64,000 bases of DNA from Cenococcum geophilum (Eukaryota): NCBI GenBank assembly GCA_050273025.1, contig CP158635.1, forward strand, positions 4,774,001 through 4,838,000, written 5' to 3'. The translations under genes were made by a program, and so were the position numbers. A model generated the notes under the pieces. It was not told the DNA's origin, ran no database searches, and was given only the letters and a program-made list of their open reading frames with translations. Positions 13,831 to 54,865 of the stretch are shown here, piece by piece. Every line of letters begins with the position of its first letter. Positions within the stretch are counted from its first letter, which is position 1.

Positions 13831-13839
13831 ACCCCCAGT

Positions 13840-17066: not shown

Positions 17067-17079
17067 TACCTAATAAATA

Positions 17080-31960: not shown

Positions 31961-32487
31961 TTATATTAACTAAATTAATTAGACGGATATTATACTCTAG
32001 TAAATAACTTAAAGATATTTAGAATCTTTAAGGATAAAGATAAAAAGGAGGGAGATAGTGTTATGGACGCTTTAAGTATAATATTACAACTACTTAGAGA
32101 AGAGTTAGAAGAAGCTAGTTAGTTAATTTAAGCACGGTTTAGGATAGAGCCGATAGAGCTATATAACGAGGAATGGTAGCTAAGGTTATATAACGTGATC
32201 TATATAATCTATATAATCTATATAATCCGTAATAGAGTAGGTAGAGTACACGTATATTATATATAAGGAGGATTTTATAAGAGTATAGTTGTATATTTAA
32301 GGACCCTTAGTTCCTACTAAGATAGTTCCTTTTTTATAGTAATTCTTAGAATATAATTAGAGTTAATCTATTAGGCAACCACTCCACTAATTATTATTAT
32401 ATTATTGACTTTAACTTGCTTTACCTATATACCTAGCCTATTAATAAGCCCACTATAGTTCTTACTATAAGGTTCTATTACACAAAC

Positions 32488-33040
32488 TAGGAGCTCTTCT
32501 CTACTTCTTTAGCAGAACTAGTTTAAGAGCTAGAACTAGAAGTAAAAATCTTAGTACTAGAAGAACTAGTAGAAGAAACCCCCTATATAGAGATAGGAGA
32601 AAAATGTCCCTTAGCCTCTTTAGAGGATTTGTATAGACTTAGGGATAGAAGTATAAGTACGCTAGCAGATAATCTAGTTGTAGATCTTACTAGCTATATT
32701 AAGCTAGTAATAAAGAAAGCTATTCCTAGATTTAGAACCTATAAATTCTTTAAACTATAGTGGAATACAGAGCTTCTATAGAAAAGGAAAAAAATGGTAA
32801 AACTAGGAAGACTTTAAGAAGAATAACCTACTAAAAGTTTAAGACTAGAAGCCTATAAGGAAGCTAAAACTAATTGCTAGAATAGCTTCCTAGAAAAGGT
32901 ATAGGAAAAAGAGATCTTTACTGCCCTAAAATATATAAAGGAGAAAATATTATAAATAATTCCTAGTCTATAGTATAGTAAGGATAGGACTATAAGACTA
33001 GTAAAAAGCTTTAACAAATAGTATAAAGCTTTTATTACTA
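32488..33040 (+). pseudogene. LINE A ORF2 part 2 (linker between EN and RT)
   Basis: Resumes after the CAAAC TSD. K(P)(W)WNTEL near 32752. Ends ...KAFIT at the Plavaka insertion. Confidence 0.8.
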
Positions 33041-33094
33041 TATCGGGAAAATATTCGTAGGATGAGATTCAAGTAGACTTTATTTTTCGCGTTT

Positions 33095-33610
33095 CGCGTA
33101 ATTAACATGCAATTTAACTAACTTGACACGCAATTAACCAACTTAACACGCAATTAACTAACTTAATATACAACTTAACTAACTTAATACGCAATTAACC
33201 AACTTAATATATAACTTAACTAACTTAATACGTAATTAACCAACTTAATATATTTAAAAGTTAAATAATACGCAGTTAACCTACTTAACAACTTTAAAAG
33301 CTAACTGTATATTCCTTAATATGCAATTAACCAACTTAAAATTTAAATAATACGTAGTTAACTAACTTAACAACTTTAAAAGCTAACTATACATTCCTTA
33401 ATATGTAATTAAGGTAATATAATATATTATTTTAAAGTTATATACCAATTATATAAATAAATTTTTACTATTTTCTTAGCCTATAGTATGCTAGCTTATA
33501 ATATATATTAGGATTAAAATAATTTTATATAATCTTATATAATCTTATACAATTTTATATAATCTTATATAATCTTATATAGTCCTATATAGTCTTATAT
33601 AGGTTCTATA
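33095..33610. repeat. Left subterminal tandem repeats of the Plavaka element
   Basis: About 20-bp unit CGCAATTAACCAACTTAACA over 33095-33410, and 10-bp TTATATAATC array near 33524-33600. Confidence 0.85.
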
Positions 33611-33779
33611 CTAGCTTAGCTACTTTTACTATTTATCCTGGCTTCTATATAATAACGCAATACAGGTTCCTTCTTTAAGAAAGTTGTCCGAGTATAGAGT
33701 ATTGTATTAGTCCTAATTAATATAATTATTAATATAGTACAAATCTAGATAAGAAGTAGCGGCTGAAACAATATGCGCG

Positions 33780-36700
33780 CTTTATAAAATAGATAGCATT
33801 AAATAAAAGCGACCACCTCTAAGTACTTGCCTAGTATTTACGCTCGAGCGCGGCCACCTTTTCACCTTAACTATGCCGTGTATTAGATGCGGCAGTCTAT
33901 AATTTAATGGCTAAAGCAGCTCTACTATAGCTCTAGTATACTATACGTATATACTATACTTATCTAACCTTTTAATATCTAGAATAGTAACAATTAGCTA
34001 AAGCTAGCCTATAAGTCTTTTACCTAACGGTGTACGGCCCTTTTTAATACGGTCGTTATTATCTATATACTCTTAGACCCATACGTAATTACGCCTCTAC
34101 TAGTTAGAATATTACTAATCTAGTACGCAACGTACTACCTTACTAATTTAGGCCTTAAGGTTAGTTGTATTTTTTTTGTCTTTTTTCTAATAGTGGATAG
34201 ATAGATATATTTTAATAAGTAGGCGCTTAACCTATAAAGGATCCTTCTCTTTTTAGTCCATATTGGAGTTCTAGGCACGTTCGCCTTATAGTTTTTACCT
34301 ATACTCTTGGATAAATACCGCAATGCCGTCTAGAAACCCTAGGATTTTATAATAGTTTGCTATATAAGATATATAAAGCCACGTCTTTAACCTAAGACGC
34401 CTTTGGACAAGATCTATTGCCCTATTTATATCTTCCAAAGGCCACCAAAGCTTTACAACTGCTAAATGCTATATTAGTTAAGTAACCTATACCTTTAGAC
34501 GCTAGGAAGACTATAATACAAAATCACTATTTATAAAAGCTATTTTATCTTCTATTGCTAGTACTACTACCCGTCTTAAATTGTAAGAGCAGATTTAAGA
34601 TAGCAAATCCCGTTTATTTATTAAGTTATAAAACGCCTTAATAATATAATGGTGTCTAGCTTCGCCATTTACGCTAATATAGTACCTATCTGCACATCTG
34701 TACAGGCGGATATTTTCCTTAAAATATATAAGGGCATGGAATTTTGGTATATTAAAATGGCCCGTATTAGAATTCTTTACCTTTAGACGGAAACTTTAAA
34801 ACACGCCTTTAAGCATATTAATTCGATATAGGGTGTGGTGTATATATTGTAGTGTCTCCTTATTATAGGTGTAATACTAAGCTATAATAACGAAGTTATA
34901 TACGGCTCTTATAAAATGCATAGTATATAATTTCCTAGATAACAGTAGTGGGGCTAGCATAGCGACAAGTTGACAAACTATAGCTTTTTGTTTATTACCT
35001 ATCTATTAAGTAACTTTACTAAATAATAGATTATTAAACCGTTTTAGCCCTATAAAAGCCGGGACTTATTTAAAACGCTAATTAAGCTAAGCCTCCGCAG
35101 ATATATTTATTATGGTTGTCTTTATCCCTCTTCTCTTTTTTTTTAGCTGGACGACATTACCTACTAGTTTCCGTACCTATTTAATAAGTTATATAACGAT
35201 ACCCTTTAGAAGCTAATATAGAATATCTACCATTATGCCCTTATAGATGTTAAATAGGCAATAATGCTACGCGAAATATTCTACTAGGTATACTTAGTCG
35301 TCTAAAGATAGAAGAATGTTCTCTAGTTACTAGCGTTTAATCTGTCTTCTTATCTCCTTATAAGTGCATAGCGGGTATTATTTCTTAGTTAAGTTTTTAC
35401 GCTTTAAAGGGGGAACCTAGCACATAGTGCAGTGCTGTCGGCTTTTAACACCTATAAGCAGCACTTATTCTTTATAGTCTGCCATTATTCTACATATAAT
35501 TAGATAATATCGTCGCATAAAATTATCCGCATATTAAAGGTCTATGCCACTTTCTATAAGATGCTTAATTACTATTATATTTTAGTTTATAGAATATAGC
35601 GTTAAAATACTAAAGTAGAACTTACGTTTAAGTATTGTTCTTATCGCCTTATAATATGCTTTACTTTTTATATTATTATCCTTTTCTTTAATAACTAGTA
35701 TAAAACTAATAAGAATATTTATAGGGGATATCTATCGGCGTTAAACTTGTCGGTTAAGATTACTAATAGTAAGATATACTGGCCAGGCCGATTTATCGCT
35801 ATAGTGCATTATTAGCTAGGTCTTATCGACTGCTATAAGTATAGAAACTACTATAGCACCGCTAGGAACCTTGCCTTATATCTCCTACTACTAATCACCG
35901 CTGTATAGCTTATTATAGACTTAGTAGTTATCGGCATTATAGAGTCTCTTTAGTGCATATACTAGTGTATTTTTAAAGGGTCAATGGCTAATTAGAAAGG
36001 CAATTACATTTATAACATCCTAGTAAAGAATATAGTATTTCCTCTGCTTAGAGCCTTTAATGTTTAATTCCACCTTACACTCTAATTAGAGCCATTGTTT
36101 ATCTTATATACTAAATAAAATAGCGGTAATTAGTTCCTCCCATTAATTTACAGATTAGAAGCTAAGTAGGCTATAAAGTAGGCTAAGGCGGGTATCTTTA
36201 AGTAGTACGTTAACGTCTCCCTTTATACAGCGAATACGGTGCAGCTATATTAAAAAGGCGTAATTAAACTTTAAATAAAAAGGATTATATAGTATACTTT
36301 AGCTATTATCGTGTTATTATATAGTAATATCTAAAATTGTCTAGTTAACTTACTATATATTATTATCGGTCTCGCATAAAATTAGTTTACCTATCTTTAT
36401 ATTCTTAGTTGCTTTAAATATCTTTACTCTAAGTAATAATAATAACAATAGGACGCTTTTCTAATATAGTATACCGCACGGAGGCACTAGGTAGGCATTC
36501 TGCTTATATTTTACCGCCACTAGAGCGTACTTATTAGTATCCGTATTTATACCGTCTAGTTATAATTACGCGTTATCTAACTAGTTAGAGTAGTAGAATT
36601 AATTGTAAATTATAAGTAGTCGGGCCGTAATAAACGTGCGAGTATTATATCTCTCTTTGCGTATTTTTTTATAGACGTGTTAGTGGCTAGGCAGCTGCCT
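33780..36700 (-). pseudogene. Plavaka transposase (RIP pseudogene)
   Basis: Minus-strand de-RIPed motifs: RVYNELHSGDWWWEMQ...GATVVSILIAVDKTQL...GDKSAWPVYLTIGNL (35755-35930), MADYEEQVLLTGVKSRQHCTMCQVPP (35410-35490), VDILHQLLKGI (near 35200), HFNIPKFHALTHF..NIRLYG (34700-34760). Confidence 0.9.
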
Positions 36701-36759
36701 TTTATAGCACCGTAGGTATTAGTAAAGGCCACCATAACTCTTAGGGGTATAAAAATACT

Positions 36760-37856
36760 ATAGATAGCTCTACTACATTATCGCTAATTATATATTAAAT
36801 AATATAGTATTATTTCTAGGCGTAAAGAGTGTGTATTATAGTACTAACGGTTAATTACTAGTATTTAATCTAAGTAGCTTAGCTTTATAGCTACTAAGAG
36901 TATACCTCTTATTTTCTCGCTAGAACTAGTTATACTAAAGCGTAAGTATAACTAGCTTAATACTGAGTTTAAGGACTTAAGAGTCTAAGGCAACCGAACT
37001 AGACGCTAAAGCGTAAGTATAACTAGTTTAATACTAAGCTTAATACCAAGTTTAAGGACTTAAAAGAGTTTAAAGCAGCCAAACTATAAACTAAAGACTT
37101 AATAGTACCTAAAAAACCTTTATCCGTCTAAATAACAATATATAGTATTCTTAGGCGATGGATATAGGACCATAGCTATAGCGAAGATATTATTTACTAC
37201 TAATGTTATAGAGCCTGACGATATTAGCTATCCGGACCTATAATTCTATTATTTCTATATAAGCCGTAGTAAGAAAAAAGGGAGGATTAAGGGTAGTACT
37301 AGTTAAGTTAAGATAACTAAATAAGTTAGTACTTAGAACTATAATATTTAGTCTTAGGTATATAGAGTTCTAACTAATATCTAACTTAAGCTGCCGCCCG
37401 GAAGTCTTATATTTGTTATTAGGGTAACGCTAGAGGGTTAGGCTAGATAATAGGTATTAGCAATAATATAAATAATTTAAAGCCCGCGAAGTAACTAAAT
37501 AGAAAGCCTATATCTTATAGGCTAACTACTTATCTTTAACAGCTTTTAAAAGTTTATTTCTAGAATTTCTTTTAATACCTCTGGTTTCCTATTAAACAGA
37601 TATATTAGCACGAGCCTATATACTACTAGGGTGCGGAGAGCTAAAATATAGTTAGAGCTCTTTAAATAATTTAGTAGAAAAGAATGGGTTATTTAGGTTA
37701 GTCTGTAAATCGGCTAGCTTAACCTTAACATTCTACCCCAGCTTGCGAAGATTAGGGCCATCTCCACCCGGTATACCACCGTCGATCTATATATTAGCAT
37801 CTCCCTTATTTATAGCGGCTAAAGAAGCTTTAGGTGTCTGGTCTTTAGAAGGCATT
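36760..37856 (-). pseudogene. Unknown ORF upstream of and co-oriented with the transposase
   Basis: Reads MPSKDQTPKA...IDGGIPGGDGPNLRKLG from ATG near 37856. Ser-rich low-complexity 3' part. Confidence 0.45.
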
Positions 37857-38409
37857 ATAATACGGCTTTTAAGAGAGCCTACTCCGCGCTAGGGCACTAG
37901 ACGCTATATTATAGGTAGAGCTTATAGTAGTTATATAAGGCGGGATATATTTCTAGGCAGTATATATTTAGAGAAATTAAGGCTAAGGTAAGCTTAACGT
38001 AGCCGTGTTTTTAAAGAGAAATTAAGGCTGAGCTAAGCTTAATATAGTTATATTTTTAAAGACAAAGAGGCTATAGTGTCGGTTTAGGCGGCTATAGAAG
38101 TTTAAAAGATTAAGCGGACAATAGTAGAAAATAGAAGAAAAAGGCGTATAAATGAGAGTACGGTATTATAGGGCTAGAGTAACAATAGCTGTGTTATAGA
38201 TAGCTTGATATGTAATTTGGACTATAGGACCTATATATAAATAAGTTTAGCGAATATCTTTAATATAAGGCGTAGTAGCTATAAATAGGATCTAGGATAC
38301 TAGTTTTGGGTTGCCTATATAGTAGACATAATAGCTTACCTAAAAAAAAGTTGCTTTATTAGTGATATAGCTTAAAAATAGGTTATACTTTAGGTAAAAG
38401 GGTATCCCA

Positions 38410-38735
38410 AAGCCTTATCTTGCGCTTGTGGGATAAAATACTATATTATATTTTACTTTGTTTTATACAATCTTAGACTTTTTATAATATCTTAGATTAT
38501 CCCCCTACCTCTCTCTACTATGCACTTTACCTTATCTTACGCTTATGGGATAAAATACTATATTATATTTCACTTTTTTTTATACAATCTTAGACCTTTT
38601 ATAATGTCTTAGATTATCCTCCTACCTCTTTCTACTATGTATTTTGCCTTACCTTACACTTATAGAATAAAATGCTATATTATATTTCACTTTTTTATAT
38701 AATCTTAGACATTTTTTAATGTCTTAGATTATCCT
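38410..38735. repeat. About 119-bp tandem repeat, ~2.7 copies, in the divergent intergenic region
   Basis: CCTTATCTTRCGCTTRTGGGATAAAATACTATATTAT...TCTTAGATTATCC recurs near 38412, 38530 and 38647. Confidence 0.85.
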
Positions 38736-39479
38736 AAACTTATTTCTCTACCTCTTTAGAGCTGCTTTACTAACTAGTTATAACACAAAGAATAGAATCA
38801 TCAGCTCTCTTATTATTATTCACTTAGTTAATAGCGTAAATCTTGCATCTTATCTCGCTACGTATTTTTTATTCCATTTCTTACTCCAAGTCTTATATTT
38901 CGTTCTACTGCCTATATTAAAGCTTATATCTTATCCTACTTCTTATATTAAGACTCGCATTCCGTTCTATTTCTTATATCACTCTTAAATTACTTTTATT
39001 AGCATCCGCTATTATCTTAAGTTAACACTATTAGTATACCTTCTTATTATAACTGTTAGGATTATCTTGTTATATTATTACTAATTATCTAATACATTAT
39101 CCGCTCTACTATCTTTATAAATCACTCTATACTATTCTATATTAAGCTTTTACCCGCTTATAAATATATAAGGTCCCTAATTATAATAGCGGCGCTATAT
39201 CTAGAATCTAGTTGGTACTTAACTACTGTAACTAATAAGAACTTATTATAAATAAGTGGTCTAAAGCTGTAGTAAGGACTTATAATTAATAAAAAAATAT
39301 ATAGCGAAATCCTCTAATACTGTACTAGCGAAATCAATAAAGCGTCTAGTGGTAGGTTGCTAACGTTCGGACCTATATAAAATAGAGTTAAGCGTATAGT
39401 CTTTAACCTTCTTAATACTAAGTATGGGCACGTGTTTAAGAGATCCGATCTACTATTAGAGTTTAAAGCTTTTACTATT

Positions 39480-42400
39480 GCCGCCAAAAAATCTATATAG
39501 CGATATGTAATGACCAATAGACGTAGAGGCGTGGAGGTTATAATAACTAATACTGTTTAAAAGCGTAGCGCCTTGTCTTCTAGAAAGTAGTCTGTTGACT
39601 TATCTAGATTAAGGGCAACCTCTAAGGCTACCTAGGTGCTTAGTAATCTGTCTATTAAAGCCCTATAATAGCTAAATACTATACCTATACTATTCTATAA
39701 AATAAGCTTTGCTGTATATAGTTACCTAGACAAAATGCCATTTACTAGGGCCCCTATTCTATATGGATTTGTATTAAAAACTAAGCATAAGCATCTATTA
39801 TCCAATTCTCTAGAGAAAATTAATGTATATTACTATGGATATAACAAGCTATAGGCCGCGATAAGTAAAAACTTCTTAGTGGATAAATATAGGGATGGCT
39901 GGACTATAGTAGATCTGACTACTAGTATACTAATTCTTAACTATATAAACCTAGTATTTATAGTGCTTTCTATAAAGAAGGCCGGACTTAATATAATTAT
40001 AATTAGAGTTAAAGATTCTAATCGGATTACAAAGCGTAAGAGACTTTATAATTTATAAGATTATATAATATTATATAGAGTTGTCTAACGTATATTTATA
40101 GGTATAAGATTTAATAAGGGTGATTTTAAGTCTAACTCTAACCCTAATATTATATAACTAGTGCCGACTAGAAGAAGAATAGATATACCTGCCCTAGGTT
40201 AAAGTAGTTATAAGTAGTTAACCCTAGAGTCCACGCTACCTATACCTAAGCAGTTAAATCTAAACCCTATATTAACCCTAAAGTCTATACCACCTATACC
40301 TACTAATACATTATTAGCTGTACGGCCGGCTATAATTAAAACTACTTATAGCTAGACCTGTAGTAGTAAAGACTAGCCCCTACTAGATAAATTAGAGCTC
40401 TTAAAAGGCGTAGATCTAGATAAAGTGCAAATATTTAAAATAATGCTATAGGATAAAATAAAAGGATAGTGTAATAAATGGCCAAAGTCTAATCGCGAAA
40501 TATTTATTGATATATTATTTAAGGATATAAATAATGACCCTAACCTAATTTATATTAGGGAAATTAATCTTAACCGCATATAGGAGCGCCGCCACTTTAA
40601 CGCCTTAATTAACCCTATTTTAACTAATAAGGAACTAGAAGATAAGCATAAGGATAAAATTAAGGAGGTTAATTAGGAAGTTAATTACCTAAAGGATATG
40701 CAAGAAGTATATATTAACCTAATATTATGGGTAAAGGCGCTATAGTTCCTCTTATTTCTGTTAACTGTTTATAACACTCTTTAAGACGTAACCTTCTATT
40801 TATATGGCATAAAAAAGGGTAAAGCTATATAGATATATTAGCTGCTTAGTATTACCCATACTCTTCTTAATTGTGTAACCCTAAGTGGGACCTTTCTTAC
40901 GGATATAATGGGTTTAGGTAAGACACTTTAAATGCTTTTAATCTAGTATACCGGCGTGTTAATAACTAAGATTAACCTTAACTAGCTTAATTAGAAAAAT
41001 CAAAAAGGTAGAGATAAAAGTCTCTACTTTGCCCCTAATACGGATAAACACCCGCAGCCGCCTAACGCCTAATACCTAAGTTAAATAGATGGCATGCTAC
41101 AGTGCTATTATGTTAAGGGAAGTATTGCTAGAAAATTTCTTAACTGGCTAGTAGGACCAACTATATATATTACTAGACAGAATCTACTACCCTAAGTGGT
41201 TAAAGACGTTAAATTATGGTTTAAGACCTTAGAACTAAATAATTTTATTCCTAGAGGTAAACTATAAGTCCGTGTGCGCTATACGGCTTTTATTAGGTCT
41301 AGTATAAAGAACTATAATTTTACGGATAAAGATAGGGATATTCTTAAACCTATAAAATATAAAGGAGAAGGCGAAGTGGTCTAGTAGAAAATGGACCTAA
41401 GATTGGCTTTATATCTTATAATTACGACCTTATAAACTTAGGTAATAACCTAGACCGCTTAGGAACAGCATAAAACCATTTTTAATCTCTATAGAGACGG
41501 TGGTCCTTATTGTATTATTAGTGGGATTTTTATTAACGAGTTCTATACAGATAGGTTAGAGATAGGTTATCTAATAAAAATCGCTAAATAAGTATATAAT
41601 AATTAAGTAGTATTTCCTTGCTTCTAATACCTAGGCCGGTCTTATAAGGACGGTAATGGTAAAATAACCTACTATACCTCTTGACCTTTAGTAGTATTTA
41701 CTTCCGGTATACTAACTAGCGAAGGTTTTATAAGTCTAATTCCCGCCTTAGAAATTTTTAGGGCCCCTAATTAGACAGATTCCCTAAATATAAAATTAAT
41801 TAATAATTGTAATGTTAAAGCGTTAATTAAATATAAAAAGCTAGGAGTAGTTAATCGCTCTTCTCTTCCGAATAAGGTTATTATAGGCTTTAAAGAATGC
41901 TCCTCTTTAATTGTAAAGGTCTTAATTATGCGTAGGATAGGGGAAGACCGATGGTTTAATGGGAGGGTGATTAATAAGCTACCACTAGTCGTTTACTAAG
42001 ACTGCTATATAATAAACGATTTAATATTCAAACCGTATATTAAGAAGCTCTAGCGTGGAGCATCCTTAAAAGCTTTTAAATAGCTAAATAAAGCTTTTAG
42101 ATACTAAAAAGCTAAAGGAAGAAAAGGAGAAGAACCCATCTTTAATATAGATTAATTTCTGGAGGGAGCCGGTCGCTTATTAAAAATTTTTGCCATCTTT
42201 TTAGGCCTGGCTAAGGTAGGAGATAAGTGGCAGGATGTGTGGTAGAAGGATGAGACAAAAGTTGGAATAAAGCCGAGGTGGATAGTTAATAAGTTCTATA
42301 GCAAAAAATGGGATAAACCTTTAGACGAGAATCCACTTTAGAAGAATTAGAGCATAATTACTAACTTTAGGAAACTAAATAGAATTATAAAATATATTAA

Positions 42401-42983
42401 TAAAGTACTTAAAAGGAATCCTAATAAGAGATTACTATTTAGTAGTTATAAACCAGCGGTATATACGCTATTACGCCTTATAAGTTAGCTATTAGACTAG
42501 TAGTAAACTATTACTAATAATATAATATAGTATTTCTATAAAAGGCTTAGCCAGTCTAAATATTTAACTATTTGCTAAATAGAGTCTAGGATATCCCTAA
42601 AAGACTAGGAGGATATCTATAAAGCGTTTTATATTCTAATAGGCGGTCTTTACTAGAATAACATAGTCTAGTTTCTTATTATTAACTAAAGAGTTAGAGG
42701 AGAGGGTTTAAATTTAGTCTCTATATATAGAGTCCATCTGCTTAAACTAGTAATAATAGTAGATATAAAGGTGTAAGTGTTCGGCCAAGCTGCTAAATCT
42801 AGATAGCCAGCGCTAGTAGTTACTATATTAATAATATATAGTACGGATAAGTAGAACCTAATTAATATAGTTATATTAGCAAGGCGTATAATAACTAAAA
42901 GGATAATGATTAATAAGTCTTATAAAGTGTTTAAAGCCCAACCTACTTAGTAGGCTGATAATGATGTAATGGAAATAGCGTAG
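39480..42983 (+). pseudogene. SNF2-family (SF2) helicase/ATPase cargo gene, RIP pseudogene
   Basis: Motif I GTFL(A)D(M)MGLGKTL(Q) at 40887-40931, motif II IFI(D)EF(H) near 41526, motif III VFTSG(TP) near 41694 (all one frame). Motif V V(G)GEGLNL near 42693, motif VI (Q)VFG(R)AA near 42775. Probable intron near 42480-42530. Start uncertain. Confidence 0.85.
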
Positions 42984-43299
42984 CTGGTGTAGTTGGAGTA
43001 GCGACCCCCTATAATAAGAGTATGTCTTAGTATAATGTATATATATATAGATAATATATAACTATTTAATATTTTGTAATATATTATCTTAGTATTAACT
43101 ACCTTATAACTAACTAAACCTTAAAAAGTTTAAATTTTATCCGGATTAATATTACTTTAGCTACTAACTACTTTAATACCTGTTAAGTAATCTAGCCTAT
43201 AACCCTACTAACTCTCATTCCTAATATATATTAATAATTCCTATTAAGGTGTATCCTCTCTACTAATAGACTATATATATATGCCATCTTTATTATTCT

Positions 43300-45400
43300 A
43301 AAAGCCTAATTAGTATATAAGAGGATTATCCTATAACTAAAGCTCCCTTTATATCTTAAATTATTATAAGAAGTAAGACGGCATTAGAATAAACAAACTA
43401 ATGTTTATAACTACCGCTTTCGTCTACTAATTGCATAGTTGCAGCGTATATACGTAGTTATCTGCTATAAGGGGGAACTATCAGTAGTAGTTTTTAAGAT
43501 CTCACTATCCCGTATAAAACTTTCACTACTGCTTATAACGTCTTAACGACTACTAGCTCCTACCTATACGCTATGCGACGTCTATATAAAATCCCTAACG
43601 GCAAAGAAAAGTATACCCTGATTATTTTATTTAATCTGCCTCCTGCCTTTTTCTATTAGTGTAAGATATCGAATTAACCTATAATATAATGCTGACTGGA
43701 ATAATTGGCAAACCTAGCTCTACTAGACAAATGTGCTTAATTATAAGGACTAAAACCCTGTTACTATTAAGCTTATTATGCTATAAAATAAAAGGGCTAT
43801 TATTAATATTGGTATATTTTAAAGGCACTTTATTAGCCGGCACTAATAGATATAAGTTAATGGACTACCTACTACTTTATATTTAACGGTTTTAAGAACA
43901 ACAGGGCAAAATATGCTGTTATTCGTTATGCTTTTACTAACTACAATATTTAATTTATTATAGGCCAGAAATTTGACCTTAAAGATAAGTGAAAGGCAGA
44001 CTTTTAGGATATATTAGATATATTATGGATAAAACCTTTATATAACCTACCCGCATTAGAATACCTTAATAGCAGTACTATACCGTTAGATTTTACTATT
44101 AGGTATTAGTAACCGAGCAACCTTAAATCTTCCCCTTGTTGCCCGGCCCTAAGCCTTATTACGTTGCTAAGACTTATTACATTATTAAGTTTTATTATAT
44201 TGCCGCCGAGCCTTATCACGTTACTAAGCCTTATTATATTATTAAGTCTTATTATATTGCTAAGCCTTATTACGTCGCCAAGCCTTATTATATCGTTAAG
44301 TCTTATTACATTACTAAGTTTTATTATATTGCCGTTAAGCCTCATTATATTATTAAGCCCTATTGTATTGCCGCCGAGCCTCCTAGCTAGATTAAGTAAT
44401 TGGACGTCGCGCATTTAACTCCTAGGCGTGGCGGGTTTGATTCCTACTTATCGCGTATTAAAAATATTAAAAATATTAAAAAAGAAGGTCGTTTCCTATT
44501 AAATTAGGCGTTAGTAAGGCTCTAAATTAAGCTTATATTTTTATACGTGTCCCGCAACGCCTAAAGTTATATATTTAACGAAATCTTAGCACTATATACT
44601 AAGCATATCGGCTCTTCCACGTTAAGTTTTAATTATATTGGGCTAGCTCTAAATTATAGCAAGAGGCAGAACGTACTATACTACTACACTATAAGGACTT
44701 TGGAATATAATCTTATAAATTTAACTAAATTATAACCCCTTTCTAAACCTTACGATTAAACCAGATCCTTAGGGAGAGATCCCTATATTAAATCTTAGGG
44801 AACGTTTAGTTGCGACTTTAGATTAAATTTAAAGGCTGTAGAATATATCCGAGCTAAAGCTTAAATCTAATTCTAACGCGATTGTTTAGTTAATCTAGTA
44901 ACTTTCTAATCTAAAAGCTCCTCTAAATCGGCAAGCGCGTTAAATTCATAAGCTATACCGTATATAGAATCTAAATTTATAAATATAGGGTATCTCTGTT
45001 ACTGTAGTGGCTACTATAGTAACGGGGGCGCTATATTTTAGTGAGTAGTTAATTTACTATATCTCTACCACTGCAGTGGCGAGGTACCTTAAGTTTAACA
45101 TTACGCTAAGCATTATAACTTTCCTGTAGTAACTGAGCAACCCTAAACTAAAGTAATTGTAGAACTTACTATGCTACTGCGCTATAAAGGCCCTTAGTTA
45201 TAGTCTTATAAATTTAATTAAAATATAAACACCTTCCTAAATCTAATAATTGAATATTTCTACGTGTAATACTATACCAAGGATTATAATATAGATTGCT
45301 TAGATATGGCTTTACTACAATATAACGGCTCTATGCCAATTAATTGATCTATAAGAGATTTGGGTAGTAAAATTACTGCTAAGAGTTACTGCCCGGATCC
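43300..45400 (+). pseudogene. Unidentified cargo gene with an internal repeat
   Basis: One frame has few stops, mostly RIP-type, across 43861-44400 (WTTY.F.F.GFKNNRAKYAVIRYAF...). No family recognised. Confidence 0.35.
44151..44380 (+). repeat. 18/21-bp frame-preserving minisatellite, about 12 units
   Basis: Unit AAGCCTTATTACGTTGCT with variants; probable ancestral unit GAGCCTCATCACGTCGCC. Confidence 0.9.
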
Positions 45401-45459
45401 TGGCCGATAAATACCCATAACTATAATCTTAGTAAATGGCAAAAAGTATATAGTAGTAC

Positions 45460-45655
45460 TGAGACAATAGCAGGATAATATAAGATAATAATAAGACAAT
45501 ATAATATAATGGTAGGATAATGATAGGATAATATAACATAATGGTAGGATAATGACAGGATAATATAACATAATGGTAGGATAATGGTAGGATAATATTA
45601 GGACAATATAATATAATAGTAGGACAATAGTAGGACAATATAAGATAATATGAAA
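45460..45655. repeat. Low-complexity GGATAAT/ATAAT repeat
   Basis: Repeated GGATAATGRYAGGATAATATAACATAATGGTA-like units. Confidence 0.8.
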
Positions 45656-46952
45656 AAATAAAATATAAGATATAAAAAGAGGGAGCCCTAACGCTTCCTT
45701 TTCTTCCTACTCCTATGGCCCTGGCGCCTAATATAGTGTAATATCGTCTATCTATATAAGCGATAGTATTAAGACAGTTAGAAGTACTAGGAAATTTTAT
45801 AAAGTATATATTACTTTAAGTAATATACCTAAATAACTAGTCTAGCGTATGGTTTGTATAACATATAACAATAACAGGGGGATCTCCCATTGTTATATTG
45901 CTAAGTAACGCCTTTAAAGCTACGTTTTTCTAGTGCCTAGAGGTCTTTAAATTATTATAAGACGCTTTATAAGAACTCGTTTCAGTACAGTAACTTAAGA
46001 TTTATTAAGCCCTATAGTAGTTATATCTAACCAGTCTTTAAGAATATAAATATTCTTAAATAAGGAAGTATTTTTAATAGCTATAATTAAACTAAGATCC
46101 GTATAAGGCTTATTTATAACATATTATAATGCTTTAATATTTTATTAAACTTAAATAAAGTGTTCTAATAACGGGAATCTATTAGTGGTTAGATATCTTC
46201 TTATTTAGAAAATATTACACACTTACGGCTCTCTTATTAGCTTTTATAATGCCAATATAGTATAGTAACTAACTTTATAAAATCTAGTTTATTCCTTAAC
46301 TATTGTCTATAATACGGATAAGTTAATCTTAATATCTTTAGGTCTTAAAGAATAAGTTAACCTCTAAGGGATTCTGTTTTAATACGGCTAATGGTCTCGC
46401 CGCCACTATTATAAGTATATATTTTGTTTAAAAATTGTTAGTCTTGGGAGTTAAAATAACTAAAGACCTGGCGACTAGTCTTTTTAACTAATCCTAATAA
46501 ATTATCTTCCCTACTCTCCTGAGTGAGAACGCTATATAGATTACTAGCCCTTAAGGTGAAAATATTACTAAGCTGGTATAGACCTTGCAGATATTAGGGG
46601 ATAACTGCTTTAGAATTATGGCATGCTTACCTATTTATATATACTAACTCTATTACTATATCTAGATTCCGGCAAACTAAAAAGGGTCTACTTTAATTTA
46701 ACCTACTACCTCTCTTAACGGTTTAATCGTATCTTCTCTTAAAAGATTATATTAAGAGCTTAGATACTCCTTTATTAAGCTATACAGACCTAAGATCTTA
46801 TTAACTTATAGTGGAATATCTCTGTTTTTACTGATAATATTCTGGCCCTTATTAGGGATATTAAGTATTTTAGTAGAAGTCGGGACCTTTAATTGTGCTA
46901 ACTAGGCTCTACTAGTTATAGGCTAACTAGGCGTCTTAAAGTATTAGTAAAT

Positions 46953-47087
46953 ATAGTTACTAGTATATATTAAGCTGCCTAGAAAGGATTTATATATATA
47001 GAACTATAGCACTATAGCCTAGAGGCTGTATGCGTATTATTGTACGTAGTATAATATAATAAATATATAAAAAATATATAAAAAAAA
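46953..47087 (+). mobile_element. About 135-bp 3'-terminal fragment of LINE A inserted in the Plavaka element
   Basis: Matches 59080-59207, has an A-rich tail, and an imperfect 14-bp TSD AAGTATTAGTAAAT / AAGTATTAATGAAT. Confidence 0.88.
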
Positions 47088-49771
47088 AAGTATTAATGAA
47101 TTTGGGTACTAAATTAAGCTTATAAACGGAGACGTAAAAGGGATAGAAGGTTATAAGTCTAAGTAGTATAGCGGGTAAAGAAGCGTTCGCTAATACGCTT
47201 ATTTATTTCTTATAAGATATTTAACTAATTGTTTTATATAATAACTAAATAATATACCTATCTATACAATTCTGTACATCGGTCTTAGCGCGTAATTAAG
47301 ACGTCTTTCCTGCCATACCTCCCCCAACGCTTCTAAAATTATAGCACTAATAATAAACCTAAGCTATAATACTAAAGACACTCTTAAGTGAGATCTAGGG
47401 CTTATAAACGAATAATATAATATAATCTACTATAATGTTGAAATTAAAATGTCAACGCGTGGGCTCCTTAGATAGCTACTATGCTCCCTTATAAGCAAGG
47501 CATAAATACGGTAAATATTAAACAAAATCTCTAACGAATTCTTATCTGTATTTCTAGGTTTACCTAAGAACCTATATACTAAATATGTTAAATAGCTTAC
47601 CTAGCGCTATAGCTATAACGCGACGCGTTAAATAAATAAAACGGCTCCTACTAGGTAAATTATAATAGGTAACCCAGTACTCCTATACTTCGCCATTGCG
47701 TATTATCTACTAGCTAGCATACTAAAGGCAATAAGGTAGGAGGGAATACTAAGGTTATATAGAATAATAATAATACTAATCTAGCGGGCAGCTAACGAAG
47801 AGCTAATAATTATCCTAACCCGAAAGCTAGTAACTAGTAAGAATGACGCTCTAAATATATACGTTGATAATCTAAGCTTTAATATATTTGTAGACATACT
47901 AGGCTAGGATATTAACTTTAACCTTAAGAGCGAAACGCTTTACTATTATATTGGCGATAAGATAGCTAGAGGACGAATTTAGCTTATAAACGAAGAGAAA
48001 TGGCGTAGTGTAGTTAAGGATATATTTCTATAAGAAATGGATAGGTTTTTATTTATAATAGAATAAAGAAGAATAAGTAGGTTACTACTTAAAGTTAAGC
48101 CAGCGTTACTAACTTGTATTTATAGTTTACGCTATTAGCTAAGAATAATATAATTACTTACCCTCTATTTCCGTACCCTTGCCTTTACTAGATAACTTAT
48201 ACTCTATATATATAAGAATAGGTAGAACTAGTAAACGGGTTAATACTAAGGCGATACTTAACCTATAGCTGTCCTAAAAAACCTCTCCTAGTTAAAAAAG
48301 AGCCCTTACTCTACGCCTTAACCCGCAATAGAAAAGGCGAAGGTAACTATAACCGCAGTATAGATTATGCGCCTTAAAGCCACTACTTTATCTAGAATGC
48401 TTGCTGGTTTAATGAATTACTATATATAAAGGTAGACGGCTTAATAGAGCCCCTTAGTATACTATTAGGCGAGGGAGTCTTAGAATAATATAACCTAAAA
48501 TATTCTTATAACTTATCCGGCATTCTTAAAACGCCTAAGGGGATTGGACAATAAAGCCTAAGGTTTATACCTATTCTTTTTAGTGAACTTATTAGGGTAA
48601 TATATATTAATACTGTCCCTAGCTCGCTCTTAGTATCTAACACCCAATCCTTATATTTATGCTTGCGCTTTCCTTACCATTTTGCTAAATTTAATTGCTA
48701 TTGTAATATATATATAGGGGATAGGTTAGGCTTACTATAGGCTAGCGGGGTTAATGACGCGGAAGAATGACGTTAGATATTTATGGTAGAAATACTAGGT
48801 GTTGTATAAGGGTGTGGAATATAGCGATATGACTATATAGAAGTGTGATTACTGTTCTGTATGCCGCCTATACCTACCCTAGTATTATCTATACTAGCGA
48901 GCTGCATAAATAAAATAGATAAGCTTTACTTTAAGTGTGAGACGGGTGTTAAACCTAGTATAGGTAGACTGGAATAAGGTATAGGATCTAAAAGCTAGCG
49001 CCCTAGGTGGGTAAAGTAGTTTAATAAGGTACCTCCCTGTTAAATTCAGACACGAGCCTTACTAGCCTACTGCTTTTGTTGCCGGGATTAACGTTTAACC
49101 TTTTGTATACGTATACTATATCTACTAAGGGATATACTAATAGAATAAAATAGTTTCGCGTATAATAGCAAATAGTATTAGACAATCTTTAACTATATAA
49201 TAATGTTTTCTTAACTACTAACTTAACGCGAGTTAATAGGTTATGGTCGCGGCTTAATTGCAACTAGTTAGAACTAGCAGCTAATTATAATAAATGCACC
49301 CCTATTTAAGTTATTTGCAAGCACTATAGTAATAATACTCCTACTAATACTGCTATTAGTCTAATATATACCATACCAGTATACATTCTTTTAAGTTATT
49401 AATCTATATACGCCCTAGATATTATAGAAATAGCTATAAGGTAACCTATTCTAGCTATAAGCTATACCTTTTACTAACTAGGCAAATATAGAAGTGTTAC
49501 TATAGTAGGTAAACGTAAAAACGCGTTATTAAATACTTAAACTAGTAGTAAGAACCCTACTTTAAGTTAACATAGGATAAGGAAACGAGGATAACTAGTA
49601 TAATTAACCTTATGTCTCTACCTAGCCTACTGCTAAGAGTTGCCTATATTCTAGCTAATAGAAGGAAGAACGCGCTAATAGAGAACAAGTACGTAGAACC
49701 TAGCTAGGACGAGTATATAGAACCTAGCCAGAATAAGTACGTGGAACCCAGCTAGAATAAGTAATATTATA

Positions 49772-50077
49772 ACTCTGGTCTAGTTATATCTGGGTATAGA
49801 GAGGAGTAGGCATATAATAGACCCTATTAACGTTAAATATAATATATTAAGCTAGCTAACAATATATAAAATGTATATAGCCGCCTCCGGCTTAAAAGGG
49901 TAATATCTAATAATAAGAATAGCGACTCTGGTCTAGTTATATTTGGGTATAAAGAGGAGTAGGTATATAATAGACCCTATTAATATTATATATAATATAT
50001 TAAGCTGGCTAATAATGTATAGAATGTATATGGCCGCCTCTGGCTAAAAAGGGTAATCTCTAATAATAAGGATAGTG
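49772..50077 (+). repeat. 153-bp tandem duplication, preceded by a 24-bp x3 repeat near 49683-49760
   Basis: ACTCTGGTCTAGTTATAT... begins at 49772 and 49925. Both unit lengths are multiples of 3. Confidence 0.85.
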
Positions 50078-51804
50078 ACTATGAGTTTATACCTACTTCT
50101 TCTATAAAATAATAGCAACTAAATATTAATAAATCTACTAAATCTATTAATAATCTGGTAGTAGAACTAGCTTAGTTAAAGACGCGAAGTCCTAATCTTT
50201 TAGTTAAGGTAGGTTATACCTTTATATATAACCGGAGTCTAACTACAATACTTAATAGTCTCCTCTACTATTTAGTATTTAGTAAGCCCTAGTAAATAGA
50301 ACACTCTCTTTACTATCTAACCGCCTACCGCTATAAAAAGCAGCATCTTTATAATATACCTCCGGCTCTTAACAATTGCGTATTAGTTTAAAATACTCTC
50401 CTATACGCCTAATCCGTACCTTACCGCGTAAATAATTACGTGCTAGTTTGAAATACTCTCTTACGCGCCTAATCTAAACCTTATTACGTAAATAACTAAC
50501 ATTTAGCTTTATATTCTTCCTAGTAAGCCATATTCACCTAAACCCTAATATAGCTTCGTCTATAAAACAAGTAACCTCCCTCTAATATAGAGTACACTAA
50601 TCTAGTATTTAATCTGAAGGGGACCTAGATAGCACTAGGGAAAGTGAGGACGAGTTAGACTATGATAATTTTGACCTAACTGCCGCAATACGGGCAAGAG
50701 AAGAGTACCTCTAGATATTATAATGGCGATATATAAAAGAAAACCCACCTAAGAGACATAAGCCTATATTTGCGCTTTATAGGTCTATTTTACTAGTAAG
50801 GCTAGTAACTAACTCTAGGACTTATAACGGGTATCTTATTAACCCGTAGTTCGACCGCTTTCTAGGCCTTATTAAGGATATAATAAAAAAGGTATAGTTA
50901 GAAGCTATTTTAAAGCAGCTAAAAGTAGTATAAAAAAAAGCTAATAGTATTCCTAACCTGGTGTCCGCTTATAAGGTATCTATATACTAGAAATATTATA
51001 TTAAATTGTTTACTAATAATCTTAATATTATATATAGCTATTTAACGTAATAGGGAACTTTAGGAACTATACGATTATAAAGGCTCGTATAGTTATAAGG
51101 GAGGTATATAGGCTAGGGTTTAACAACACGCCTAAACTAATCATAGAACTACTAACTAATTATAATTTTATTGCGCTAGATTATATAAAGGTATTTTGCC
51201 TGTGCTATTTAGTAAAATACTAATAAGAGTTAATAGCTAAGTAATAACCGCTTCTGTTTTAACGCGATAGTTGCTAGTATAGCTAGTATATTTTATAGTA
51301 GAGGAAGAAACGGCCTTGCCTAATTACCCTGCTCTTATAATATATTTAAAAAGCTTACTAATAATACTATTATTTTTGTTTTAATAGCAATATATTATAT
51401 AATTAGGGAGTATAGAACTGGGTCTAAGGGAACAGATAACTTTTATAGCACTATTGTTAGCGGTTAGTATATATCCGGTATTTTACTACCTATTATTATT
51501 CTCTAACCCGTTATAGAAGCCTACGCTAACCTCTTAGGTAGCTAGAACCAGATATCTAGAAAACGGCAATCTAGAATCTGGCTGCGGCTTTAGCCTATAG
51601 TTATTAAATATACTATAGGCCTAATGCCAGATTAATTAACTATAGAAATTATTAAGGACCTGTATAAAGATAACCTTAACGACCTTATAGTGGATCTAAG
51701 TAATGATGTAAGAGAGAGGTTCCTTATAAGCCTTAGCGACAACAAAACTAACGCGATTATTAACTTAGGCTATTTATTAGTGAGCCGGGCTATACTATCT
51801 AATC

Positions 51805-51942
51805 TACTAAGTCTGTCTTAAAGGGAGAGCTCTAGAGTAGGCTAGACTAGTTTACTAAGTCTGTCCTAAATAGAGAGCTCTAAAGTAGGCCAGACTAGTC
51901 CACTAAGTCCGTCTTAAAGGGAGAGCCCTAGAGTAAGCTAGA
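51805..51942 (+). repeat. 48-bp tandem repeat, about 3 copies
   Basis: YACTAAGTCYGTCYTAAAKRGAGAGCYCTARAGTARGCYAGA at 51805, 51853 and 51901. Confidence 0.85.
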
Positions 51943-52666
51943 AAATCTAGGGCCCTACTACTACTATAATATTTACTAATTTAACTTTTGGAACTAGCTA
52001 AGTTTATTAAATTTAGTAGAATATATATCCTCCGCCTTAGTATACTACTTTATTCTAAATATAGGAACCGGTAAGCCTAGGCCGGAAAGGTTTAAATCTA
52101 ATAAGTTATTTATATAATTTAAGCAGTACTATAGCCTTATAGAGGACAGCTATAGCTAGTATAGTAACGGAAAAGCAATATTAAATTTAATTAAGAATGA
52201 GGAGTAGTATATAAAGTTTATAATATATGCTCTGGACTCTAGTATAGAGGAGCTAGTAGAGTTTTTAGTAGGAGATTAGGTATAGGACTTTTTATACTCT
52301 CCTATAGGATAACTACGGCTTCTTTATTATATATACTAGCTCTTAATCTACCTTTCTTTTAGCCTATATCTGCTACTCTTAGTAGCTACTTTTTGGCTAT
52401 ATATATACGCTATGCTAGCAAAGCTAAATACTTATAGTATATTATTGTCGCAGGGAGAGTAGGAAAGGTCTTATGCTTTTAGAATATATTATAAAACAGT
52501 TAGGATATTATATTAAATTGTCTAAAATAATATAATAGATTGTATAAAGAAGTGTATATAATTTACCTTACTAGCCTTATAAATAGCTTTAAAGTAGCCT
52601 TTATTTATTATCTAAAATATACTATTAGTATAAAAGAGGTAGATGGCTCTAAATACAATTATAGTT

Positions 52667-52733
52667 GTAGGTTATGTGTAGGTTGCGCGTAGGTTGCGTG
52701 TAAGTTGCGCGCAGGCTGCGCACAGGCTGCGTG
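52667..52733. repeat. Right subterminal 11-bp repeats of the Plavaka element
   Basis: GYAGGYTGCGY repeated about 6 times. Confidence 0.85.
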
Positions 52734-53013
52734 TTAAAAAAACACAACATAGGCTAGTCGGTCGAGTTGCCAAATGCCCTTAACTGCGCGCCAATTGCGT
52801 CAACCACTAACTATTAAGGCCATTAGTAGGGTACTATATTTTGCCGATATACTCTATTTCCTAAACCCCCTTCTTCTACTAGCTCTATAGAGTAGAAGAA
52901 CTATATTATAGATAGTAAATAGGAATAGCTAGAACTAAAGAAGATGGAGGTTAAATAAGTAATCTTCTCTAGCTCTAATAAAAAAGCTCTAGGGCTAAAT
53001 AAGCTATCCTTTA

Positions 53014-53098
53014 GCCCGCGAAGCCCTACTGCACGCGTCCACGTCGCCGCGGGTGGAAACATCATCAGGAATCAATTCCTTTTGATGGCCAAGTGCAG
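53014..53098 (+). ncRNA. HDV-like self-cleaving ribozyme, intact fold
   Basis: P1 53014-20/53048-54, P2 53029-34/53093-98, P3 53035-37/53045-47, L3 UCCACGU, P1.1 CC/GG (53055-56), P4 53060-87, J4/2 GCCAA. Confidence 0.9.
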
Positions 53099-54865
53099 AG
53101 GCGATGGTAGAGAGCCGCCGCAGCGCGTGCAGCGCGCTGTCGTCGCGGTTCTGTGGTGTTGAGCTCGCGACGCGTACGATGTATCGTACAAAGCTTCGCA
53201 CAAAGCATCGCCCTCAACAACACCAGGAGCCTTACTGCCTCCGCTTGAGGCTCCTGCTCTACCACCTAGGGAGGCCTATCAAGGGAAACTGGGATACGAA
53301 AACCACCCGATGTACGACTACCTGGCTCGTAGCCAGGCCCGAAACTGGCCTTATTAGCCAGTCGACGTGGACGCGTCCTAGGCGTACGACAGGACACCCT
53401 TGGGCTTGCACTAGCTCTGAGACCGTAGGGACACGGCGAGGGCGTAGGGAACCTCTTTTTATAAGAACTTGTTAAGGTTAACGCGTCGCAGATACCTCGT
53501 ACGAAACTTGTTAAGGCCCCAAGGCCACCGCGAAGAACTTGTTAAGGCCCCTGCCTAGAGAACTCGTTAAGGCCCCTCTACGAGGGCCTATCTGGTATCC
53601 GGTACTCCCAGGTGACTCAAAAGAGGGTCTTAATAGGCGTGGTGCGCGCGACCTGGACGCGACAGCGACGCGATAGCGACGCGACGGCGACCAGACGGCT
53701 CGACGAGGTGGAAACACGGGCAAAGCTCTAGGCAGCGGAAACACAGGCCAGCTTCGACGGCCCCATGGCGACCAGGTGACTCACAGGAGGGTCTTAATAG
53801 GCGTGGTGCACGCAACCTGCGCATATACATATGGGGGAGGCTCTAAGGAAACACAGGCCAGTCGTACGAGGTCTCAACAGTTAGAGACACAGGCCAGCTT
53901 ATAAAAAGGGGGGACACAAGCTTGGTTAGTAGGAGAGGGCAGAGCAGGTCGCCTGGCGCGGGACCGAGCATCTACGACCCCTCCTGCAAGACACGGTCGG
54001 CCTGTCATAAGGAGACTCTTACAGGCAACGCGAAACGGAGACTAGTAGTATATAGGGTGTTGCGCCCCTATACTACTACTAGCCCCCGCGGGGCGTAGTG
54101 CGTAGTAGCCACTGCTGGCTCTAGGGACCTCACCCCTTAGCTGGGCTCTAACCCCTAGTGCACCTGGTAGGCAGGCAGGATCACGTCCTGGCCGGAGAGA
54201 CTACTACATGGCTCGAGAGAACGGATGCGCGTGTCGGTGTACCAATAGACAGGACTGCTCGCTAGGGCAGTACGCTAGTGAGGTACGCTTAAGGAGCAAA
54301 CAGGAGTTACTCAGGCGGGAGAGGTTTGGCAGGCCTTAACTGTAGAAGGTGCACCCACTCCACACTGCAGGATGCAGCCACGACGCCCTTGTAGGATTAC
54401 GCCAGTAGGCGCGTGAGACGGGAGTTGCGACCCCTGCAAATGGCAGCTTATGCCCGTGCCGGCGGAAACAATGAAGAGAGGCGTGAAACTAGAGGCTATG
54501 GAAGGCTCCTAAGCCGTGCGAAAGCGTACCAACTCTAGGAGGAAACTCTTATACAGACTGCTAGGGGGCAGACTGGTACTTGGGCTAACCCCATTATAAG
54601 ATATCCGTAAGAACTAGTGAGAATCCCTGTGCGATTGGTGGTGGCAGCTAACTGCTTGTGGCTGGGATAAAGCACTGGAAAACTGAGGTAGAGGCCTGGA
54701 TAAGCAGGCATAGTAAACTCTACTGTATTATTAGTACTACTAGTATATATAACTACCTGCCCCTTTGCTCCTCCGTCCGTCGTCGCAAGGGCGCCGCCGG
54801 TTGTATACCCCCTAAAGACACGTCACCACGACGCTAGCCACCACAACCAACGATTCCACCACAAC

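Follow-up and report, generated by a model that had tools for sequence, protein, structure and literature searches.

We report a large, gene-carrying DNA transposon in a stretch of Cenococcum geophilum DNA of 64,000 nucleotides (contig CP158635.1 of assembly GCA_050273025.1, positions 4,774,001 to 4,838,000), which is hereafter called the window and to which all coordinates refer. The segment from 33041 to 52849, 19,809 bp in length, is very probably one dead copy of a 19.8-kb transposon of the Plavaka lineage, related to EnSpm/CACTA, and represents a single insertion into open reading frame (ORF) 2 of a long interspersed nuclear element (LINE). This reading is based on what could be observed of the element: its ends, the duplication at its target site, an empty site, the collinearity of three copies, the identities of its domains and a spectrum of changes typical of repeat-induced point mutation (RIP). 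In addition to a transposase, the element contains two probable accessory genes, one SNF2-family ATPase-like and the other DUF6532-like, as well as a fragment of an Hrr1/ZNFX1-type helicase, which is probably a functionless passenger.

Ends of the element and its insertion site

The two ends form 14-bp terminal inverted repeats (TIRs) in which 13 of the 14 bases pair and one is mismatched, and each is adjoined by the dinucleotide TA. The left junction reads ...TTATTAC TA followed by TATCGGGAAAATAT (33039-33054), while at the right junction ATATTTTGCCGATA (from 52836) is followed by TA and then by CTCTATTT; as TATA is palindromic, the placement of the cut from sequence alone is uncertain by 1-2 bases. 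Given the base composition of the region, sequences at two fixed positions would pair at 13 or more of 14 bases with a probability of approximately 5.6e-7. When the terminal 14-mer of the less mutated copies described below was searched for with up to 2 mismatches, it was found only at 33041(+) and 52849(-) in the 64-kb window. Subterminal repeat arrays lie inside both termini, in inverted orientation. The motif YGCARYYDRY has 19 occurrences in the window, 11 of which are inside two terminal regions of approximately 450 bp, with five in the left 460 bp, every one on the + strand, six in the right 450 bp, every one on the - strand, and eight elsewhere. Elements of the En/Spm type have subterminal protein-binding repeats, a layout that these arrays resemble.

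The translations of the flanks place the insertion within the LINE. The left flank reads ...SFNK*YKAFIT, and the right flank resumes with LFPKPP, in a frame shared with an RVT_1 domain located at 56379-57068 (E 1.9e-19). Removal of the element thus brings the KAFIT flank to LFPKPP and restores the reverse transcriptase frame, as had been claimed in a preliminary description of this DNA that was made from its letters alone. The same description suggested a comparison with uninterrupted LINE copies. We searched for an empty site by placing contigs of four public runs on 32946-52945 at a likeness of at least 80%, and one contig of run X1, derived from a LINE paralogue, bridges the site: it aligns to 33012, resumes at 52872, and its 32 bridging letters include ACTACTCTATTT, which corresponds to both flanks joined with TA present once. 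Alignment of the flanks to this contig gave 32.5 for a model with one TA, versus 26 for zero TA and 29 for two. Among the loose contig ends listed from this placement, none fell at 33041 or 52849, and the termini gain no support from them. We consider the empty-site evidence, which is one contig with a 28-letter anchor, to be good, although not overwhelming.

The 14-bp TIRs at 13/14, the TA target-site duplication and the subterminal repeats at both ends had all been proposed in the preliminary description, and we found each of them where it had been placed. Of the two pre-RIP termini offered there, CATCGG is the one read in two other copies of the element, at the loci L001 and L002, whereas the window has TATCGG, the RIP form. 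The idea of TA as an obligatory target did not survive the comparison of copies, because the dinucleotide flanking the left end is TA in the window and in L001 but AG in L002.

Collinearity of three copies

Further copies were obtained by querying metagenome contigs with P0015, a protein related to the SNF2-like gene, which led to three loci (L001, L002 and L003). L001 is collinear with window positions 33042-51802 and L002 with 33042-51757, at identities of 86-88% over approximately 18.7 kb; both loci stop about 1.1 kb short of the expected right end, at the limit of the flank. L003 spans window positions 38431-43102. The identity between L001 and L002 was 90.2% over 19,683 columns in a pairwise comparison, and the identities in a three-way alignment of the window, L001 and L002 were 88.0, 88.1 and 90.6%. 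The homology of L001 and L002 begins at 33041/33042, beside unrelated flanks, with left junctions reading ATTACTA/TATCGGG in the window, AATCTA/CATCGGG in L001 and CTGACAG/CATCGGG in L002. The sequences outside these three junctions are wholly unrelated, which fixes the left boundary exactly; and since three copies at unrelated sites have the same order, the block is a unit of the family rather than a pile-up of later insertions. The earlier claim that the whole block moved as one unit is in this way borne out for at least 18.7 kb, counted from the left terminus.

One could alternatively envisage a composite, in which a short Plavaka element was inflated by nested insertions or the block arose through segmental duplication, given that the window is a nest of elements and that arrays inside the block vary in copy number. 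We regard this as very unlikely: the whole order is common to three copies with unrelated flanks, the terminus does not recur inside the block, the duplication agrees with transposition, as does the empty site, and the largest private indels measure only 134-202 bp (202 and 163 bp absent from the window, and 134 bp absent from L001 and L002), most of them in tandem arrays. Summed read depth, which is not a measure of copy number and is a hint only, was fairly even over the element (approximately 12,000-19,000 in run X1 and 7,900-24,900 in run X5). Runs X21 and X22 had very low depth at 37615-38281 and 45619-46952, and we draw no conclusion from this uncovered part.

The presence of the stretch as a whole varied among public datasets. 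Among runs X5-X20 and X16, many that are labelled as a second organism contain 24-43% of the sampled words of the stretch and one root metagenome contains 31%, and three runs with that second-organism label contain almost none of it. The locus or the family may differ between strains.

Differences between copies and RIP

Counting the sites at which a single copy departs from the other two, we found 2920 transitions versus 125 transversions (96% transitions). Within the three-way alignment, the changed base was followed by A in 431/768 cases of C>T and preceded by T in 555/812 cases of G>A. The public runs had a like excess of transitions; the spectrum in run X1, for example, comprised A>G 367, C>T 308, G>A 361 and T>C 454, with any transversion seen at most 4 times. 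A CpA-biased pattern of transitions is that of RIP, which is known from Pezizomycotina, and the differences between copies carry its mark. Every frame of the element is full of stop codons, and translations were read with X at stops. Scans of stop-codon density did not distinguish coding from non-coding frames.

Transposase

Six frames of the element (12 translations) were scanned against Pfam at E ≤ 0.01, a search whose sensitivity is reduced by RIP damage, and three families only were obtained: Plavaka (PF18759), ZNFX1 (PF25396) and DUF6532 (PF20149). The Plavaka model matched 35195-36100(-) with an E of 3e-34 and 119.2 bits, relative to a cut-off of 26.3, in agreement with the Plavaka transposase that the preliminary description had put near the left end. 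The gene probably extends from approximately 34000 to 37500. Its named relatives are distant and come from agarics (Mycena, Coprinellus), with 21-23% identity to the RIP-damaged window copy; PF18759 was present in all three of the relatives found (P0016-P0018). The transposase alignment retains both Asp positions as well as C(2)C, which reads CTMC in the window and CTIC in L002. The position corresponding to LHQLHKG reads L(H/Y)XLLKG in the copies, with the first His seen in L001, although RIP blurs this comparison.

Starships, the large elements of Pezizomycotina, have a tyrosine recombinase and lack TIRs of this kind or a 2-bp duplication. What our element has in common with them is limited to its size and its several genes, as a large multi-gene mobile element of a filamentous fungus. 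The scan of the 12 translations yielded neither a tyrosine recombinase nor a DUF3435 family, and the element has TIRs, a Plavaka DDE domain and a duplication of 2 bp. The chance that this is a Starship-like or other non-DDE giant element is therefore negligible, and the non-Starship assignment made earlier holds in the six-frame scan.

The SNF2-like gene

A search with the SNF2-like region of the window returned a single protein relative, P0015, a 691-amino-acid (aa) JGI/IMG sequence with the source name 'SNF2-related domain'. P0015 covers 40410-42485 without gaps at 68% identity, and the differences between the two are of RIP type (W to stop, E to K, D to N, T to I). The N lobe in the window contains the motifs GLGKT, (D)EF(H) and SGT(P), and a helicase-C-like end was recognised by eye beyond a stop or intron at approximately 42486. 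P0015 belongs to a cluster of six members (P0015 and P0128-P0132) from several JGI/IMG contigs of 1.3-21 kb, among which P0130 is an open 804-aa ORF with a start equivalent to window position ~40158. All six stop at the same point, where mutated copies run on in frame into the helicase-C-like part, and an intron would account for this shared stop position.

We then relied on the wider family of P0015 for domain identity. An exhaustive search with this protein found 100 relatives at E ≤ 0.001, 27 at ≤ 1e-10 and 3 at ≤ 1e-30, with a best E for a full-length protein of 2.7e-18. Many of the relatives are short fragments of 50-70% identity, presumably ORF pieces from other mutated copies. When 16 longer relatives were picked, SNF2-rel_dom was above its cut-off in 15 of them and Helicase_C in eight, with a ninth just under. 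In an alignment of P0130 with 13 relatives (A3), GLGKT, DEFH and (S/T)GTP were invariant or nearly so, and the A3 profile matched 91 SNF2 sequences of the PDB, the best being ISW1 at 8.8e-42, with ISW1, Rad5, Rad26 and Rad54 spanning 1e-32 to 9e-42. The cellular-looking kin of the gene are distant, at 19-25% identity. An hhalign comparison of the five-copy alignment (A1) with A3 was also considered as support for the SNF2 assignment, and we rejected it because its N-terminal part is circular, both alignments containing nearly the same un-mutated protein. This comparison reaches A1 column 929 without a separate statistic for the helicase-C part, and the helicase-C label consequently rests on our reading by eye.

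Taken at the level of sequence, these results indicate that the gene is real, that it belongs to a divergent SNF2 branch and that an un-mutated form of it exists in nature. The SNF2 label given in the preliminary description can thus be kept by way of the un-mutated P0015 and P0130 and their kin, but it is not demonstrable on the window copy alone. The presence of un-mutated SNF2-like ORFs on metagenome contigs hints that intact copies of the family live in the sampled fungal populations.

The helicase fragment and the DUF6532-like gene

ZNFX1 (PF25396) was detected at 46341-46583(-), with an E of 3.1e-10 in the six-frame scan and 1.3e-10 with a regional query. The surrounding region matches nine ascomycete proteins, all of which have AAA_11, AAA_12 and ZNFX1. 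The best of these, with 51% identity and an E of 1.2e-56, is P0019, a 1162-aa protein of Glonium stellatum; the rest are 31-37% identical, and some are named 'Helicase required for RNAi-mediated heterochromatin assembly 1'. By tblastn, the residues of P0019 that are covered were 41-446 in the window, 1-388 in L001 and 41-387 in L002, and nothing of the AAA_11/AAA_12 helicase core was present in any of the three copies. Because the homology stops at residue ~388-446 of 1162 in all three, the element contains part of a helicase gene rather than the gene itself. The earlier 'helicase' label thus needs correcting to a captured N-terminal fragment, one that the ancestor of the family already carried.

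Within the helicase fragment there is a piece of approximately 135 bp of the same kind as the 3′ end of the LINE family that hosts the insertion. L001 and L002 have no gap at this place, which implies that the element kept moving with debris aboard. The same unit is found three times in the window, at 46951-47090, 56111-56243 and 59080-59211, with the copies 87-91% alike; the sites are, respectively, the inside of the Plavaka element, the end of a G+C-rich retro-insertion and the LINE end. The unit is probably the 3′ end of the LINE family, common to whatever the LINE machinery mobilises. Depth in run X1 was approximately 5-fold higher in the bin 46953-47619.

DUF6532 (PF20149) scored 22.2 bits in the six-frame scan, under the cut-off of 24. 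Shorter queries gave 25.3 bits for the window, 28.7 for L001 and 23.5 for L002 relative to the same cut-off, in the same frame and at the same place. Together with the SNF2-like gene and the helicase fragment, this gene agrees with the earlier statement that the further sequence of the element contains several degraded genes. The positions of all features are listed in Table 1.

Table 1. Features of the Plavaka-lineage element and of the LINE that it interrupts (window coordinates).
Feature	Position	Strand	Evidence
Host LINE ORF2, left part, ending ...KAFIT	32484-33040	+	Translation
Left target-site duplication copy, TA	33039-33040		Sequence; empty-site contig with single TA
Left TIR, TATCGGGAAAATAT (CATCGGGAAAATAT in L001 and L002)	33041-33054	+	Sequence and copy comparison
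Left subterminal repeat array, 20/41/82-bp units with CGCAATTAAC-type motifs	33102-33412	+	Tandem arrays and motif count
Plavaka transposase core, many stop codons	34571-36100	-	Pfam PF18759; relatives; tblastn and alignment
Tandem repeat, 117 bp x 2.8, spacer between the divergent transposase and SNF2-like genes	38413-38734		Also in L001-L003
SNF2-family ATPase-like gene, RIP-broken	40158-42998	+	P0015 match; five-copy alignment A1; SNF2 kin of P0015
Captured N-terminal fragment of Hrr1/ZNFX1-type superfamily 1 helicase, core absent	45636-46943	-	Pfam and relative P0019
~135-bp piece resembling the 3′ end of the host LINE family, inside the helicase fragment	46951-47090	+	Repeat comparison; no gap in L001/L002
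DUF6532-like gene (domain 51222-51470)	50600-52300	+	Pfam PF20149
Right subterminal repeat array, CGCAACCTAC-type motifs (tandem array 52666-52731)	52666-52800	-	Tandem arrays and motif count
Right TIR, ATATTTTGCCGATA, reverse complement TATCGGCAAAATAT	52836-52849	-	Sequence
Right target-site duplication copy, TA	52850-52851		Sequence and empty-site contig
Host LINE ORF2, right part, LFPKPP...KKALGLNKLSF	52852-53011	+	Translation; resumes at 56244 after another insertion

The genes other than the transposase can be viewed in two ways. It is quite possible, if somewhat short of probable, that the SNF2-like and DUF6532-like genes function as accessory genes, which might open chromatin, counter silencing or aid the transposase, in a manner comparable to TnpA or the PAG genes. 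Both are found at the same place in all three copies, and in un-mutated copies the SNF2-like gene is an open 804-aa ORF with GLGKT, DEFH and SGTP. Accessory genes are known from Plavaka elements, as outlined in a preprint and an article on these elements (bioRxiv 10.1101/2025.02.11.637652; PMC12730594). However, the three copies represent one young family, and their common content says little about whether the accessory genes are needed. The second view, only slightly less likely, is that all of the non-transposase content consists of passively captured host genes and fragments, in the style of CACTA elements or Pack-MULEs, with no role in transposition. The helicase piece, with its core absent in three copies, is plainly a truncated capture, and the LINE 3′ piece inside the family unit shows that the element tolerates junk, which counts in favor of passive cargo. 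On the other hand, un-mutated copies keep the SNF2-like gene as a long open frame, and no recent host donor is evident, as the kin of this gene are so distant.

Proposed transposition and points that weigh against it

In a Plavaka-lineage transposon of this kind, a DDE transposase would recognise the CATCGG... termini, and proteins bound at the inverted arrays of subterminal motifs would probably assist in this recognition. The whole element would be cut out and pasted into a new site, where 2 bp would be duplicated. The present copy was inserted into ORF2 of a Tad-like LINE, and RIP afterwards added many C-to-T and G-to-A changes. We infer the chemistry of transposition here, as well as the role of the subterminal motifs and whatever function the SNF2-like and DUF6532-like genes may have.

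Several observations count against our description of the element or some part of it. All of the element copies seen are RIP-mutated, and its activity can therefore be inferred at most. In the H(3-4)H motif of the transposase, Leu replaces the second His in all three copies, and the protein search found no intact transposase relative of this element family. With regard to the ends, the 2-bp duplication is seen in the window copy and in one paralogue contig with its 28-letter anchor, the right ends of L001 and L002 being unseen, and this contig differs from the window by the absence of approximately 16-20 nt immediately left of the junction. As for the SNF2-like region, the window copy had no Pfam hit at E ≤ 0.1, no PDB match was obtained for it either with phmmer at E ≤ 1 or with a five-copy profile, and even the un-mutated P0015 scored 21.2 bits on SNF2-rel_dom, under the cut-off of 24.9.

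Comparison with described elements

Autonomous Plavaka elements are defined by pfam18759 in one report (PMC8290104), and a second groups Plavaka together with EnSpm, Mirage, Chapaev and Transib as a 'CMCT' clade (PMC12730594). As summarized in the latter, PlavakaA elements have 2-bp duplications and TGT..ACA termini, PlavakaB elements have 2-3 bp duplications and CATCA..TGATG termini, some with TET/JBP, and both groups come from Agaricomycotina (PMC12730594). In our element a 2-bp duplication was found, on the window copy. The termini of L001 and L002 begin with CAT and not with the TGT of PlavakaA, and their CATCG agrees with the PlavakaB terminus at 4/5 bases, the window reading TATCG after RIP. 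Compared by termini only, the element would fit nearest to the PlavakaB pattern. It also resembles PlavakaB, as characterized in that text, in having a PF18759-type transposase related to EnSpm, a 2- or 3-bp duplication, CATC-type termini and extra genes. It differs in residing in an ascomycete-type, RIP-active genome, in having G rather than A as the fifth terminal base (CATCG..CGATG), and in carrying SNF2-like and DUF6532-like genes where TET/JBP is found in PlavakaB (PMC12730594).

Plavaka elements of Tuber (the Chinese white truffle) are reported in an accessible excerpt to have 2-bp duplications and 5′-CATAC-3′ termini (PMC12581995); they share with our element an ascomycete host, the 2-bp duplication and a TIR that starts with CAT, after which the terminal motif diverges; the excerpt mentions neither their size nor any accessory gene. 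Giant Plavaka elements of the red algae Bostrychia and Chondrus measure 17.4-19.1 kb and have three accessory genes and tandem arrays (bioRxiv 10.1101/2025.02.11.637652). They are alike in transposase, size class, several accessory genes and tandem arrays, and a further likeness is that they are massively amplified with mostly degenerate copies. The algal accessory genes are different, comprising PAG1-3 (an N6-adenine methylase with SET, and a ParB-like protein with a 2OG oxygenase), and the hosts belong to a different kingdom. None of the domains of these algal proteins, including the DNA methylase (PF01555) and SET (PF00856) of PAG2, was found, nor was TET/JBP, in the 12 translations of our element at E ≤ 0.01, where RIP lowers the sensitivity.

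EnSpm/CACTA elements proper are distinguished by a 3-bp duplication and CAC(TA) termini, as opposed to the 2 bp and CATCG seen here, and ESTA elements, which are EnSpm-like, by a duplication that must be TA and by a transposase that is RAG1-like and separate from that of Plavaka, as opposed to the AG beside L002 and the match to the Plavaka model. En/Spm (CACTA) of maize encodes TnpA and TnpD, makes a 3-bp duplication and has CACTA ends. It resembles our element in belonging to the wider DDE clade, in having a second protein gene and in its inverted subterminal motifs at both ends; the duplication and the terminal motif set the two apart. Gene capture by plant CACTA elements and Pack-MULEs offers a parallel for the helicase fragment, as there too a truncated piece of a host gene is amplified inside a TIR transposon, although here the host is a fungus and the captured gene is of a silencing-helicase family, judging from the names of its relatives.

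The novelty implied by the preliminary description was set too high, in that fungal Plavaka elements with 2-bp duplications (PMC12730594; PMC12581995) and algal giants with accessory genes are already on record. Full-text literature searches did not find an SNF2-like partner of Plavaka or CACTA transposons in fungi, and the word SNF2 is absent from the main text of PMC12730594. In the literature text available, the term DUF6532 was met only in a Ganoderma genome paper. The kind of element is known, and we have not found its gene combination in print.

Neighbouring insertions and internal arrays

The element lies in a region of nested repeats with 25-35% G+C. The same LINE ORF2 is split by two other insertions, an LTR (long terminal repeat)-retrotransposon-like block at 24578-32483 and a G+C-rich retro-insertion at 53012-56242. 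The first has direct repeats at 24580-24976 and 32061-32475 that are 87% identical, and further partial copies of it occur at 1-811 and 59208-61243(-). No Pfam family was found in the single frame of this block that was scanned (P0013), and its label is based on the LTR pair and on pol-like motifs recognised by eye.

The second is an un-mutated block of 3.2 kb with 52-58% G+C. At its end is an A-rich tail, which follows the ~135-bp LINE 3′-end piece at 56111-56243, and a direct repeat of 13 bp, AAGCTATCCTTTA, borders the block at 52999-53011 and 56243-56255. It contains a tandem array of 70 bp x ~8.7 (54855-55465) and is 75-80% like 15296-17068(-). The block looks like a retro-insertion made by LINE machinery, later than the end of RIP at the locus.

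Within the Plavaka-lineage element itself, internal tandem arrays are located at 38413-38734, 44149-44372, 45472-45651, 49772-50080 and 51799-51942, with units of 117, 18/57, 11/43, 153 and 48 bp, respectively, and their copy number varies among the three copies.

Implications

Beyond what has been discussed above, one may speculate that a giant Plavaka lineage of RIP-active ascomycetes owns a dedicated SNF2-family remodeller and a DUF6532 protein as an accessory module with which it would open its chromatin or shield it from silencing, that un-mutated copies of it with open frames circulate in natural populations, and that the helicase piece serves as a decoy or a source of small RNA against host defence; we consider this combination unlikely. 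Large mobile elements of fungi are mostly discussed as Starships. The element described here is a non-Starship, a cleanly bounded DDE/TIR transposon of approximately 20 kb from a filamentous fungus that moves a set of genes together as a block, and its helicase fragment shows that gene capture by such elements happens in fungi too. With regard to genome annotation, JGI/IMG gene calls with the name 'SNF2-related domain' or 'hypothetical protein' that cluster with the SNF2-like gene are probably transposon genes. If the link between the transposon and SNF2 holds in other fungi, it would provide a testable case of a transposon that carries its own chromatin remodeller.

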